DNA of 64,000 bases. Origin: Actinomycetota bacterium (GTDB lineage: Bacteria; Actinomycetota; UBA4738; JACQTL01). The position numbers and the translations under genes were made by a program. Each line of letters opens with the position of its first letter. Positions within the stretch are counted from its first letter, which is position 1. The stretch is from the NCBI GenBank assembly GCA_045805265.1, contig JBJMLO010000028.1, forward strand, positions 447 to 64,446. Direction: 5' to 3'. Shown one piece after another: positions 46,308 through 50,448 of this stretch. The notes under the pieces are model-generated. The model searched no databases. It was not told where the DNA came from and saw nothing but the letters and a program-made list of their open reading frames with translations.

Positions 46308-47045
46308 TCAGCTCCACGCGATGGTGACGATCTCCATCGGTTCCGCGATGCCCTTGAGGGTTACGGCGCGGGGTTCGGAGGCTCGGAACCTCGAGCCGGC
46401 CGCCGTGTCCACGCTGGCCAGGACTTCGCCGCCACCTGCTAGCGCGGCGATCCTCGCGGCCTCGTGGACGCCCTTGCCTCGGAAGTTCTGGGCCACCTGG
46501 GTGGCTTCGGAGGCGTGAACGCCAATCCTCACGCCGGGCGCGAACCCGTTCTTGCGGCGGTGCTCGGCCAGCCGGCGCTGGATCGCCACAGCGCACGCGA
46601 GCGCGGCCTCGGGGCTGTCGAATCCCACGAAGAATCCGTCGCCGGTCGCCACGACCTCCTGGCCGTCGTGGGAGGCGAACAATCCCCGAAGTGTTTCGTC
46701 ATGCCACCGGAGCAGGGACGACCAGGCCTCGTCGCCCATGGCCTCGACCAGGGCCGTGGAACTCACGATGTCGGTGAACATGAACGTCTTCATCACGCGA
46801 CGGGGCTGGCTGACGGTCGCCGCGCGGAGCTGCCAGGGCAGCAGCTCCTCGACCTCCTCGATCTCAATGGCCTGCGTCGGGCACGCTAGCGCCGCCTCCC
46901 GGAGCATCTCCTCCTCGACGCTTCCGGGGTCCACCACGTCGGCCTTCGCGAAGTCGCCCTCGTGCCAGTCGAACGCTGTCGGCGCGATCGTGATGCAGTT
47001 TCCGGCGCCCACGCAGCGGTGACGGTCGACCCGGGCCCGGATCAT
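46308..47045 (-). CDS. [3Fe-4S]-type ferredoxin domain fused to class III adenylate/guanylate cyclase domain
   Basis: 245 aa; N-term CVGAGNC(x)nCP single-cluster ferredoxin pattern (CxxAxxC…CP); C-term FTDIVSST…GDGFFVGF class III cyclase motifs; ATG 2 nt downstream of the LAL regulator stop. Confidence 0.75.
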   Translation of the reverse strand: MIRARVDRHRCVGAGNCITIAPTAFDWHEGDFAKADVVDPGSVEEEMLREAALACPTQAIEIEEVEELLPWQLRAATVSQPRRVMKTFMFTDIVSSTALVEAMGDEAWSSLLRWHDETLRGLFASHDGQEVVATGDGFFVGFDSPEAALACAVAIQRRLAEHRRKNGFAPGVRIGVHASEATQVAQNFRGKGVHEAARIAALAGGGEVLASVDTAAGSRFRASEPRAVTLKGIAEPMEIVTIAWS

Positions 47046-47047
47046 CC

Positions 47048-50000
47048 CTACACCACCCCCTCGCGCAGCGCGTAGGCGGTGGCCTCGCCCCGCGAGGACG
47101 CCCCGATCTTGGCGAACATCTGCTGGAGCCGGAGCCCCACGCCGTCCTCCGGCATGCCGAGCCGCTCGGCGATCTCCCGGTTCGTCAGGCCCTCGGTCAG
47201 CAGGCCGAGGAGCGACAGCTCCTCCTCCGCGAGCGCCGCGAGCGAGCCGTTCCCATGCCCGTCCCCGTCCGCCGCCGGGGCCGAGATCGGCCCGGCCAGC
47301 CTGACCCACTCCCGGCCGATCGGGCCCCGGAACCACCGAACCCGCATCGCTTCGTCGGCGGTCCGCTGCGCCGTCATGGCCAGCAGGAGCCGCAGGAACA
47401 TCTGGACCATCTGCTGCTGCTCCTCGTTGCCCGCCGCCAGGATCGCCCGGGCCGTCGGCAGCAACAGCTCCGGGTACACGTCCTCTCGCATGGCTTCCTG
47501 GATGGCTTCCATCGCGGCGCCGCCGAACTTGCCTGCGCCGGCCAGATCGCCGCGGGCCAGCGCCACCTCGGCCAGGGCCGCGTCCGCCTGCGCCCCCCAC
47601 GGCGGGTGGGCCGTGAACATCGGCACGAGCTCCTTGGCCTCGGTGGCCGAGCGTTCCGCGAGCTCCAGCAGCTCCTCGTCTCGCAGCTCAGCGCCGAGCC
47701 GCGCGGCCTCCAGGGCCAGCCGGGCCAAGATCTCGCAGCGAGCGGACGGGACGCCCTGCTGGGTGGCCGCCCGAAGCGCTCGGTCCATGTGCTCCCGCAT
47801 CCCGTCCGGGTCGCCGGCCGCCGCCTTGGCCAGGCCCCGCCACAGCTCGAGCCGCCGGGCCCGCAACGGGGTCGGGGCGGCCGCGGCCGCCTGGGCCGCG
47901 AGGTCCAGCCAGCGCTCGGCTTGGATGACGTCGCCGATGTCGAGGAGCGCCATGGCCACCCCGCCCGCCGAGAGGAATTCCAGCGTCCGGTCGCCGAGCG
48001 TCGTCGAGGCCTGGTAGGCGTCCTTCCCGCGGGTCACCGCGAGGTCGGGGATGACCTTGGCCCGGGCGAACACGTGCACGCCGTACAGCATCTGGGCCTC
48101 GGCCAGTGCACGTTCGCTCTCCTTGGACAGCGACCGCATCCTGGTCATCAGCCGGCGGATCTCCTCGATGCGCTGGGCGGCGCTCGCGCCGAGGTGGATG
48201 TCCGGGCCGAAGTTCAGGAATGCCATCGCGATCACCGACGACATGACGCCGCGACGGTCGCCGAGCTTCTCGAACAGCCCGAGGGCCCGGTCGAAGTAGG
48301 CGCCCGCGGCCATGGAGTTCGGCGCGATCGGCAGCGTCGGCATGATGGACTCCAGCGGCTCGCCGCCGGCCGCCCTGGCGAAGAGCGGGAACTGCTCGCC
48401 GGACTTGACGAGTTCCACGAACCACGCCCGGACCCGCCCCACCTCGATGGTGCCGAGCTCCCGGCAGGCAGCGGCCAGCGCGGCGTCGTCGCCCAGCTGT
48501 TCCGCCAGCTCGACGGCCCGCAGGAACGGTTGGTCGGCAGCGTCGAAGTCGGTCTCGGCCGCCGCCGGCACGTAGCCCTCGCCCAGCTCGCTCTGGAGGA
48601 GGGCCTGCCCGAGCTCCAGACAAGCCGCCAGCTCGGCCTCCGGGTCATCGCGCTCGCGAGCGAGCTCCTGGACCCGCCGGGCCAGCTCGGCAGCCCGGTC
48701 GTGTTCTTCGGCCGCTCGAAACGCCGCCGCCCGGCGCAGCATGATCTCGAGCTCCAGGTGGGGGTCGGCGAGGGCGTCGGCCAGGGCCGCGAGCTGCGCC
48801 AGCCCCTCCAGCCGGTCCACGGGCCGGCGGAGCATGTCCATCGCGTCGTCGCGGAGCGACAGGAGCGTCACGCGATCCTGCGGGCTGGACGCGATGGCCA
48901 GGGCCCGGTCGACCGCCCGCAGCACCTCCTCGGGTGCGTGCGACGCCAGGGCCGCCCGGGCCGCGTCGATCGAAAGCCGGGCACACAGCTCCGTATCGCC
49001 CGCGGCCGCGGCGTGCTGGGCGATGAGCGCCAGGCTCTCGAGCGGCGGCTCGCCGGCCTCGGTCAGCATCTGGACGATCGCCGCGTGGATGGCCCGGCGG
49101 CGGGGCGGCGACAGCGACCCGAGCGCGAACTCCCGGACCTGTTCGTGGGTGAAGCTGTAGTCGGCGGGGGCGCCCGCCGAGTGCTGGGCCAGCAGGCCCG
49201 CGGCGGCCGCGGGGGCCAGGGCCTCAGCCATCCGGCCGGGGTCGGGATCCTCATCGCCGAGCCGGGACCGCACCGCGCCGAGGTCGGTCAGGCTGAAGCT
49301 GCGGCCCAGCACGGCGGCCTCGGACAGCGCGGTCTTCGTGTCCTCCGGCAGCCGGCCAGAGCGACGCTGGATCAGGGTCTGTACGGCCGAGGGGAGGAGC
49401 TTGTCCGCCCCCTTGGCCAGCGTCCACACGCCGTCGACCTCCTGGATCATCGCCGCGTCGCGGTACGACCGGACCAGCTCCTCGAGGATGAACGGCACCC
49501 CTTCCGCCTGGGCGTGCATGGTCGCGGCGCCGACCGGGCTGACCTGACCGCCGAGCAGCTGGCGCAGGAAGGCGGCGGTCTCGGCCTGCGTGAACCGGCC
49601 CAGCTTGATCCGCCGCACCAGCCCGATCCGCTCCATGTCCGCGATGAGGGTGACCGCTTCGGTAAGGAACGCCGTCTCCTCCGGACGCATGGAGAGCAGG
49701 AGGAAGATCGGGCTCGCGGCATCCGTCCGCACGACGTACCGGAGGGCCCGGAGGCTGTCCTCGTCCCCCCACTGCAGGTCGTCCACGAACAGGGCGATCG
49801 GCCGGACGGTGGCGAGCGCCCGCAGCGCCACGGCCGCCTGGTCGAACTGGCGGAGCAGCTGCTGGTCTCCGGGGAGGGTCTCGATCGCTGCGTCCGCCCG
49901 TCCGGAAAGGGTCTGGAGGGCACGGTGGACCGGTTCCTCGGCCACGGTCCCCTCGGCGGCCTCGGTCACCGCCGCCGAGGTCAGGATCGAACGCATCAAC

Positions 50001-50287
50001 AGGAACGGCGCCCGGAGCTCCTCGTCGGCGGCCACCGCCACCGAGGTGAACCCGCCCTCCATGGCGAGCTGGGTCGCGGCCAGGAGCAGGCGGGTCTTCC
50101 CGATCCCGGGCTCGCCCTCGAGCGTGAGCGCCGTGAGGCCCCCGCGAGCCACCTCCAGCTCGGACTCGATCGCCTCGAGCTCGACCGCCCGCCCCACCAC
50201 CGATCCGGTGACGCGACGCATCTGGAAGGCCAGCGGGCACAGGGCCTGCAGGACCGGATCAGACGCGAGCACCTGGACTTGACTCAT
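47048..50287 (-). CDS. LAL-family regulator (N-terminal AAA/STAND ATPase, TPR-like middle, C-terminal LuxR HTH)
   Basis: Walker A GEPGIGKTRLL; C-terminal LTNREIAERLGMPEDGV…LQQMFAKIG LuxR-type HTH; start set at MSQVQVL (ATG 50287), the ORF could extend to TTG 50362. Confidence 0.75.
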   Translation of the reverse strand: MSQVQVLASDPVLQALCPLAFQMRRVTGSVVGRAVELEAIESELEVARGGLTALTLEGEPGIGKTRLLLAATQLAMEGGFTSVAVAADEELRAPFLLMRSILTSAAVTEAAEGTVAEEPVHRALQTLSGRADAAIETLPGDQQLLRQFDQAAVALRALATVRPIALFVDDLQWGDEDSLRALRYVVRTDAASPIFLLLSMRPEETAFLTEAVTLIADMERIGLVRRIKLGRFTQAETAAFLRQLLGGQVSPVGAATMHAQAEGVPFILEELVRSYRDAAMIQEVDGVWTLAKGADKLLPSAVQTLIQRRSGRLPEDTKTALSEAAVLGRSFSLTDLGAVRSRLGDEDPDPGRMAEALAPAAAAGLLAQHSAGAPADYSFTHEQVREFALGSLSPPRRRAIHAAIVQMLTEAGEPPLESLALIAQHAAAAGDTELCARLSIDAARAALASHAPEEVLRAVDRALAIASSPQDRVTLLSLRDDAMDMLRRPVDRLEGLAQLAALADALADPHLELEIMLRRAAAFRAAEEHDRAAELARRVQELARERDDPEAELAACLELGQALLQSELGEGYVPAAAETDFDAADQPFLRAVELAEQLGDDAALAAACRELGTIEVGRVRAWFVELVKSGEQFPLFARAAGGEPLESIMPTLPIAPNSMAAGAYFDRALGLFEKLGDRRGVMSSVIAMAFLNFGPDIHLGASAAQRIEEIRRLMTRMRSLSKESERALAEAQMLYGVHVFARAKVIPDLAVTRGKDAYQASTTLGDRTLEFLSAGGVAMALLDIGDVIQAERWLDLAAQAAAAAPTPLRARRLELWRGLAKAAAGDPDGMREHMDRALRAATQQGVPSARCEILARLALEAARLGAELRDEELLELAERSATEAKELVPMFTAHPPWGAQADAALAEVALARGDLAGAGKFGGAAMEAIQEAMREDVYPELLLPTARAILAAGNEEQQQMVQMFLRLLLAMTAQRTADEAMRVRWFRGPIGREWVRLAGPISAPAADGDGHGNGSLAALAEEELSLLGLLTEGLTNREIAERLGMPEDGVGLRLQQMFAKIGASSRGEATAYALREGVV

Positions 50288-50448
50288 GTCGCGGCGTTCC
50301 CCCCGGGACGCATGGGACGGGCATCCAGTATGCGGCACGCCCTCGGCTCTCGACAGTGCCAACTTGCGAGCGGCACTGGAGGGCCGCTACCATCCGCGGA
50401 CAACTGCATACGACGCCCTCGGGTTCCTGTACGCCCGGAGGGCGAGAG

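Follow-up and report, generated by a model that had tools for sequence, protein, structure and literature searches.

A conserved gene pair coding for a ferredoxin-cyclase protein and a LAL-type regulator, a candidate redox-responsive module of uncultured Actinomycetota

A pair of adjacent genes was examined in a 64,000 nt stretch of DNA from an Actinomycetota bacterium (assembly GCA_045805265.1, contig JBJMLO010000028.1, nt 447-64,446; the whole stretch, with a G+C content of about 72%, is referred to here as the window). The upstream gene encodes a LAL-type transcription regulator and the downstream gene a soluble protein of 245 aa (Fd-CHD), in which a single-cluster ferredoxin domain is joined to a class III nucleotidyl cyclase homology domain (CHD). 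The same two genes stand next to each other in all of the 80 closest loci found in other species. With a probability of roughly one half, we consider that they represent a conserved sensory-transcription module of uncultured soil Actinomycetota, in which a redox-gated Fd-CHD would act with the LAL regulator.

Both genes are on the minus strand. The LAL gene (nt 47048-50362) has a longest open reading frame (ORF) of 1104 aa, running from a TTG at 50362 to a TAG at 47050-47048, and the Fd-CHD gene (nt 46308-47045) starts with an ATG at 47045 and ends with a TGA at 46310-46308. Only two bases, GG at nt 47046-47047, lie between the TAG of the first gene and the ATG of the second (...GTG TAG GG ATG ATC CGG...), a geometry typical of translational coupling. 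The 245 aa sequence is identical to NCBI entry MFL5799710.1, named 'MAG: 4Fe-4S domain-containing protein [Actinomycetota bacterium]'. The true start of the LAL gene is probably the ATG at 50287, giving a product of 1079 aa, as this codon is preceded by a Shine-Dalgarno-like sequence (GGGGGGA) and alignments with LAL orthologues begin at about residue 8-41 of the longest ORF, both of which make it likelier than the TTG at 50362. A divergent intergenic region of 160 bp (nt 50288-50447) extends from this start to the S-adenosylmethionine (SAM) riboswitch of the neighbouring gene, and is presumed to contain the operon promoter; a scan of nt 45600-50700 for sigma-70 consensus promoters and terminators found nothing. 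An ORF of 1082 aa (nt 47255-50503, plus strand) runs antisense across the whole LAL gene, a typical artefact of high-G+C DNA and not a gene.

A scan that covered one genome per species returned 194 relatives of Fd-CHD, the best 80 of which were full-length and 70-82% identical to the window protein. All 80 came from uncultured metagenome-assembled genomes (MAGs), which by the labels of their own records are mostly Actinomycetota, with about 12 Chloroflexota and single representatives of Dormibacterota and Planctomycetaceae. The orthologues are of uniform length (242-246 aa). An orthologue of the LAL regulator (50-72% identical) is found immediately upstream and on the same strand in 80 of 80 loci. 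Its stop codon and the start of Fd-CHD are most often 2 nt apart, and in 75 of 79 loci the distance is between -1 and 25 nt. The other neighbours present in the window (GltB, an AbiEii-like nucleotidyltransferase, a ThrC-like enzyme and an ECF sigma factor) are not conserved across the 80 loci. When their flanking ORFs were clustered, no additional gene family recurred in more than 14 of them; the biggest further cluster consisted of spurious antisense ORFs within LAL and was rejected as a partner family. The genes around the module are housekeeping genes, and no cytochrome P450 or reductase gene is near it. A preliminary description of the window, made from the bare sequence, had placed a 245 aa ORF 2 nt after a LAL ORF of more than 1000 aa and had seen in the pair a self-contained module; the spacing and common strand are exact, and the strict pairing, tight gap and lack of any other conserved neighbour agree with the second claim. 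It had also allowed that the architecture might prove to be a common annotated family of known function. The family is indeed common (the databases hold hundreds of 245 aa homologues, 70-95% identical, and hundreds of metagenome clusters), but its members carry only automatic names and no assigned function.

In several genomes, further CHD paralogues (35-56% identical to the window CHD) are located a few kb from the module (L013 2213-2653; L031 2007-2381 and 10463-10915; L038 12432-12926; L061 2610-3104; L070 3999-4553; L077 3666-4100, the L numbers denoting individual loci). In L070 the paralogue is directly upstream of LAL. The formation of CHD heterodimers is a possibility where such paralogues are encoded nearby.

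The ferredoxin domain occupies aa 5-62 of Fd-CHD (nt 46860-47033, minus strand), where Pfam reports both Fer4_13 (37.9 bits, cut-off 24.5, E 2.9e-9) and Fer4_15 (35.0 bits, cut-off 22.4, E 2.3e-8). Its motif is C11-V-G-A14-G-N-C17...C55-P56, with the predicted cluster ligands C11 (nt 47013-47015), C17 (nt 46995-46997) and C55 (nt 46881-46883); A14 stands where a fourth Cys would otherwise be. C11, C17, C55 and P56 are invariant in 81 of 81 Fd-CHD orthologues from species-level genomes, while position 14 is Ala in 78 of these and Ile, Ser or Val in the remainder, but never Cys. The Cys and Pro residues were again invariant, and position 14 followed the same pattern, in an alignment of 74 sequences, among them a second clade with 54-72% identity to the window protein, so that the N-terminal Cys residues do not show the lack of conservation that the preliminary description had named as the finding that would count against it. 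The pattern CXXA/GXXC(X)nCP is a recognised motif of single-cluster ferredoxins of the [3Fe-4S] type (PMC6237146). Sequence relatives of the domain in the PDB are the single-cluster ferredoxins 1rof, 1dax, 2z8q and, from M. tuberculosis, 8amp. The domain most likely carries one [3Fe-4S] cluster. It is followed by an interdomain linker (aa 63-86; nt 46788-46859, minus strand) with the conserved sequence EELLPWQLR, in which E67, L68, L69, P70, W71, Q72 and L73 are near-invariant and R74 is invariant. AlphaFold2 (AF2) predicts a helix at aa 70-79, with low confidence. In an alignment with Ma1120, a cyclase of M. avium, the counterpart of the linker is the N-terminal extension of the full-length protein (4wp3).

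The rest of the protein (aa 87-245; nt 46311-46787, minus strand) was assigned to the class III CHDs from Pfam, phmmer, AF2, Foldseek and residue conservation. The Guanylate_cyc profile (PF00211) matches aa 87-180 with 28.7 bits (cut-off 21.9), and the closest solved proteins in a phmmer search (aa 65-236) are Ma1120 (E 3e-25) and the CHD of Rv1900c/LipJ of M. tuberculosis (E 8e-22). Over aa 81-245 the AF2 model reaches a predicted local distance difference test (pLDDT) score of 87-98, and Foldseek placed Ma1120 and Rv1900c at the top of its PDB matches (E 1e-16, target TM 0.89-0.93, 34-40% identity). The motifs FTDIVSST and GDGFF, from which a class III catalytic domain had initially been recognised, are at aa 90-97 and 135-139. 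That assignment holds, with PF00211 above its cut-off and the fold matching solved cyclases, as does the earlier reading of the N-terminus as a CxxAxxC…CP pattern of the [3Fe-4S] ferredoxin type, given the Fer4_13 and Fer4_15 matches and the motif residues in place.

Catalytic residues were mapped via the Ma1120 numbering of PMC4215837. The metal-binding Asp residues are D92 (in FTD) and D136 (in GDG), invariant in the 81 orthologues and found in 142-144 of 145 members of the wider subfamily described below. R198, the transition-state Arg (R168 of Ma1120), is invariant, and so are S96-T97 of the phosphate loop and R173, while either K or R is found at position 231. Where Asn is canonical (A164 of Ma1120), the orthologues invariably have His (H194); in the subfamily this residue is His in 133 and Asn in 11 of 145 members. 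The substrate Lys (K101 of Ma1120) corresponds to V132, a variable position (V, T, A, S or G in orthologues), and the substrate Asp (D157 of Ma1120) to N187 (61 Asn and 16 Asp in orthologues). As the Lys/Asp pair that specifies the substrate is not present, the product is not predictable from these residues. We infer that the CHD works as a cyclase, depends on dimerisation for this and is relaxed in its base specificity.

The LAL regulator has a STAND-type NTPase domain of the AAA_16 family (aa 55-221; nt 49700-50200, minus strand; Pfam E 1.2e-15), with a Walker A motif, GEPGIGKT (aa 83-90; nt 50093-50116, minus strand), and a Walker B motif, FVDDLQWGD. At the other end of the protein is a LuxR/GerE helix-turn-helix (HTH) DNA-binding domain (aa 1044-1098; nt 47069-47233, minus strand; Pfam E 6.4e-7, 29.3 bits, cut-off 23.5). 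In 60 LAL orthologues the Walker A sequence is invariant and Walker B is conserved as DDxQWxD. The following features of the LAL family, for which MalT is the paradigm, are present (an N-terminal P-loop NTPase with Walker A and B, a C-terminal LuxR HTH and a length of about 900-1100 aa). The regulator differs from MalT-type LALs in being obligately paired with an Fd-CHD gene and in having no TPR_MalT region by Pfam; neither TPR nor TPR_MalT matched the protein at E<0.1. The NTPase-repeat region of the NCBIfam model TOMM_kin_cyc aligns with aa 54-608 (E 1e-28), below its cut-off.

Relatives of the cyclase domain were collected by an exhaustive HMMER search of 1.84 billion representatives, which gave 344 proteins at E<1e-30. 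The clean Fd-CHD architecture accounts for 2 clusters only among these. In all the remaining relatives, a segment homologous to aa 80-244 of Fd-CHD, typically 50-67% identical (64% for the CHD of P0127, compared with the window CHD), forms the extreme C-terminus of a larger protein; the position of the CHD was C-terminal throughout a set of 150 representatives. Their Pfam architectures are AAA_16-GerE-CHD, AAA_16-...-CHD, Trans_reg_C-BTAD-(AAA_16)-CHD and TPR/TPR_MalT-CHD, and they include genuine LAL-GerE-CHD fusions of 1158-1190 aa in at least 8 independent clusters, one of them cleanly called on a 60-kb contig. Hallmarks of the subfamily are D92, S96-T97, GDGFF, R173, H177, G190, V193-H194, R198, K231-G232 and a C-terminal Trp (W244 in the window protein). 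Judged from these residues and identities, the window CHD belongs to a regulator-associated subfamily that recurs as a C-terminal appendage of LAL, SARP/BTAD and TPR regulators. The order LAL, HTH, CHD is common to the operon and the fusions, with the ferredoxin added at the junction in the operon. Since genuine LAL-HTH-CHD fusions exist, the operon looks like a split version of them into which a ferredoxin has been inserted.

Five database proteins that appear to join the two products were rejected. The single chains of LAL-HTH-Fd-CHD type (P0123, P0125, P0142 and P0215) contain out-of-frame stretches that return to frame and represent frameshift debris, and the extension that makes P0034 resemble a fusion results from reading the LAL 3′ end out of frame. 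By their reading frames, all five are assembly indel errors or over-extended gene calls, and artefacts of this kind would mislead an automated census of domain architectures.

In the proposed module, the first gene would supply a STAND/LAL regulator consisting of an ATPase, a helical repeat region and a LuxR HTH, and the second, translationally coupled to it, the soluble Fd-CHD. The redox state or integrity of the cluster would be relayed via the linker helix to the dimerisation or activity of the CHD. The active sites of the CHD are expected to require a head-to-tail dimer, and in this way the state of the cluster would set the synthesis of a cyclic nucleoside monophosphate (cNMP), most likely cAMP, made with relaxed base specificity. 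Fd-CHD would act in complex with LAL, and oligomerisation of LAL would be coupled to dimerisation of the CHD. A redox- or O2-gated second-messenger switch had been suggested in the preliminary description, and is a plausible reading.

Several observations weigh against this reading. The AF2 model has pLDDT values of 37-68 for aa 1-80 and contains no cofactor, so contacts between the ferredoxin and the CHD are unreadable. The PF00211 match is weak and includes profile positions 10-110 only. Replacement of the canonical purine-selecting Lys by the variable V132, and of the canonical Asn by His, makes both activity and product uncertain. No cNMP receptor is encoded in the 64-kb window, and among the database fusions examined there was no trustworthy Rosetta-stone protein containing the ferredoxin. 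Co-transcription of the two genes is something we infer from their spacing. Lastly, [3Fe-4S] clusters are fairly O2-stable, and for that reason an FNR-like O2 switch is not favoured as the input; sensing of the cellular reductant pool is.

A bolder form of the proposal, which we regard as rather doubtful, is that the Fe-S cluster directly controls CHD dimerisation on the LAL scaffold, the CHD being an induced-proximity effector or switch of the regulator as well as a source of diffusible messenger. Whether the LAL oligomer assembles would in that case depend on redox state, and heterodimers with the CHDs of other SARP, LAL or TPR regulators in the genome might take part too.

Among the competing explanations, the one that survives best, although we think it unlikely, is that the two proteins are independent partners. 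Fd-CHD would be a redox-regulated adenylyl cyclase, its cAMP acting on CRP or other cyclic nucleotide-binding (CNB) receptors elsewhere, and LAL would simply be expressed alongside, for instance to control the same regulon or itself, with no contact between the two. A small (about 145 aa), stand-alone cNMP-binding protein (PF00027, E 1e-20) does occur near the pair in about 8 of the 80 loci (L009 7422-7856, L060 8769-9269, L016 3734-4174, L028 1163-1609, L070 1989-2417, L073 7813-8373, L038 10069-10887). In three of them it is within about 600 nt of the pair, some 40 nt downstream of Fd-CHD in L009 and L060 and some 500 nt upstream of LAL in L016. Such a protein could be the reader of the signal, and lends weak support to a cNMP output. 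The metal and phosphate residues of the CHD are complete, and no trustworthy chain joins LAL and ferredoxin, both of which would also suit independent action. On the other side, the pairing is maintained in 80 of 80 loci, with tight spacing and with LAL identity down to 50%, and CHDs of this subfamily are found covalently joined to LAL, SARP and TPR regulators; this strict pairing and these fusions argue for a physical unit.

It is somewhat less probable that the CHD is non-catalytic, that is, able to bind nucleotide and to dimerise while producing hardly any cNMP or none. Its part would then be that of a dimerisation or regulatory subunit, controlled by the cluster, by which LAL is switched on or off. 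The loss of the canonical Lys at a position that has become variable, the change of the canonical Asn to His, the weak Pfam score and the presence of the domain always on transcription regulators, and not on classical sensor domains, would all be accommodated. However, the 145 members show little or no variation in the metal Asp residues, the phosphate-loop Ser-Thr, R173, R198 and K/R231, which is hard to explain without catalysis. Rv1900c, which the PDB and NCBIfam call an adenylyl cyclase, aligns with the same two substitutions: the canonical Asn is replaced by His, as part of a VHxxAR motif, and the Lys by Asn. Its residues N342 and H402 were reportedly found by Sinha and colleagues in 2005 to be dispensable for adenylyl cyclase activity. 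Ma1120, with Ala in place of the canonical Asn, is active, and introducing Asn there is damaging (PMC4215837). With Rv1900c deviating at both positions and Ma1120 at that of the Asn, H194 and the missing Lys do not argue against catalysis in Fd-CHD, but they leave its product uncertain.

A passive cluster is improbable. The ferredoxin would in this case be a structural or electron-carrier module, the cluster doing no more than stabilise the fold, and the CHD would be regulated by LAL alone. Structural Fe-S clusters do occur in many enzymes, and the [3Fe-4S] type is relatively inert to O2. Yet the surface residues R8, D26, W27, G30, D31 and K34, none of them a ligand, are invariant in the 74-sequence alignment, which suggests a conserved interaction surface, and the linker is highly conserved. 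Related CHDs, furthermore, work without a ferredoxin, so the ferredoxin looks like an acquired input.

Least probable of all is an unusual product specified by V132/N187, such as the cCMP or cUMP of Pycsar cyclases, another cNMP that is neither cAMP nor cGMP, or a mixture, since the replaced Lys/Asp pair and a weak PADLOC similarity to PycC (E 4.8e-5) are set against a score for that match (20.9 bits) far below the Ma1120 and Rv1900c matches, a housekeeping context and the lack of any Pycsar-type effector gene conserved alongside. Rv1900c, moreover, has similar substitutions and makes mainly cAMP. A role in anti-phage defence (Pycsar or Avs-like) was likewise rejected, PADLOC giving only this PycC match and none for LAL, with no conserved effector and housekeeping neighbours.

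The redox-gated module that we prefer resembles several known systems in part. With Ma1120 (4wp3, 4wp8, 4wp9) and Rv1900c/LipJ (1ybt, 1ybu) it has in common FTDIxxST, GDGF, the metal Asp residues and the transition-state Arg, and with Rv1900c also the His at the canonical Asn position and the lack of the canonical Lys. Neither protein has a ferredoxin; Ma1120 is a stand-alone CHD with the K101/D157 pair, and Rv1900c carries an N-terminal alpha/beta-hydrolase domain. NCBIfam has no specific model for Fd-CHD; its best match is LipJ, and since this reaches just 107.7 of the 800 bits that the model requires, Fd-CHD is no LipJ equivalog. The ferredoxin domain is of the same Pfam families, size (about 60 aa) and CXXAXXC...CP pattern as the actinobacterial [3Fe-4S] ferredoxins that partner P450s (e.g., M. 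tuberculosis Fdx, 8amp), but is fused to a signalling domain instead of being a free electron carrier.

Two described groups come closer in domain content. The Mclx proteins Rv0386, Rv1358 and Rv2488c are single chains of CHD, AAA/NB-ARC ATPase and LuxR HTH, and have been described as nearly restricted to Mycobacterium (PMC4452763, PMC3466318). Set alongside by description, they are made up of the same kinds of domain as the window pair (class III CHD, STAND-type ATPase, LuxR HTH). In Mclx proteins, however, the CHD is N-terminal and part of the one chain, whereas here it is encoded by a separate downstream gene and, in the related fusions, is C-terminal after the HTH; a ferredoxin is added, and the hosts are uncultured soil lineages. 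The second group, known in silico from about 30 alpha- and beta-proteobacterial sequences (e.g., R. palustris Q132R4), combines a six-transmembrane (6TM) cytochrome b-like anchor, a ferredoxin and a class IIIb cyclase (Beltz et al. 2016 eLife, PMC4821796). There too the ferredoxin is directly N-terminal to the class III domain and a redox input is predicted, but those proteins are membrane-bound, with a heme-binding 6TM region and a class IIIb domain, while Fd-CHD is soluble, has a CHD of the Ma1120/Rv1900c type and is paired with LAL. As its ferredoxin begins at residue 5 of 245 aa, it has no room for a 6TM anchor. The novelty claim of the preliminary description, which knew of no described ferredoxin-cyclase fusion with this architecture, must therefore be narrowed: a membrane form is on record (PMC4821796), and CHD, AAA and LuxR domains are combined in Mclx, but the soluble form has only automatic names, and a literature search found no paper on this soluble ferredoxin-CHD/LAL architecture.

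Several genes adjoining the module in the window were also annotated. Divergent from the LAL gene is a full-length SAM riboswitch (RF00162; nt 50448-50550, plus strand; 95.2 bits, E 1e-21), with a threonine-synthase-like pyridoxal phosphate (PLP) enzyme (nt 50510-51874, plus strand; PALP E 2e-74) that has an N-terminal Cys-rich ribbon directly downstream of it. The listed GTG start at 50510 falls inside the riboswitch, so the true start must be further downstream, possibly the GTG near 50639. Control by SAM suggests a role in methionine or sulfur metabolism rather than that of a plain ThrC; MetM-like enzymes are such a case. Beyond it are an extracytoplasmic function (ECF)-type sigma factor (nt 52400-52936, plus strand; Sigma70_r2 and r4_2) and, overlapping this by 4 nt, an ORF of 227 aa (nt 52933-53616, plus strand) with one predicted membrane-like segment and no Pfam match, which is probably an anti-sigma factor. 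On the other side of the module, downstream of Fd-CHD and convergent with it, an ORF of 189 aa (nt 45121-45690, plus strand) matches the AbiEii/DUF2204/DUF6036 nucleotidyltransferases, a family of type IV toxin-antitoxin toxins; it is not conserved beside the module in other loci. Between nt 18000 and 26000, G+C climbs locally to 0.75-0.77 and GC skew to +0.09 to +0.13, compared with the rest of the window.

Class III cyclases accept many sensor domains, and a literature search found no experimentally characterised example under Fe-S cluster control. What appears to be new here, judged at the level of domains and gene order, is the sensor domain of this class III cyclase, together with the topology in which CHD and LAL are associated, and the module plausibly ties the redox state of the cell to gene control. 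Mclx proteins and this module raise the same question, that of what a cyclase domain does on a STAND/LuxR factor. Being small, soluble, strongly conserved and abundant, the module offers a tractable model for the control of cyclases by Fe-S clusters and for the role of CHDs on regulators. It also draws attention to the many LAL, SARP and TPR regulators, undescribed as a set, that end in a CHD in soil Actinomycetota and in MAGs labelled Chloroflexota, from which it follows that the combination of CHD and LuxR domains is not specific to mycobacteria. If the cluster does control CHD dimerisation on the LAL scaffold, STAND/LAL regulators would gain a new kind of input logic, and Fd-CHD would be the first class III cyclase regulated by an Fe-S cluster.

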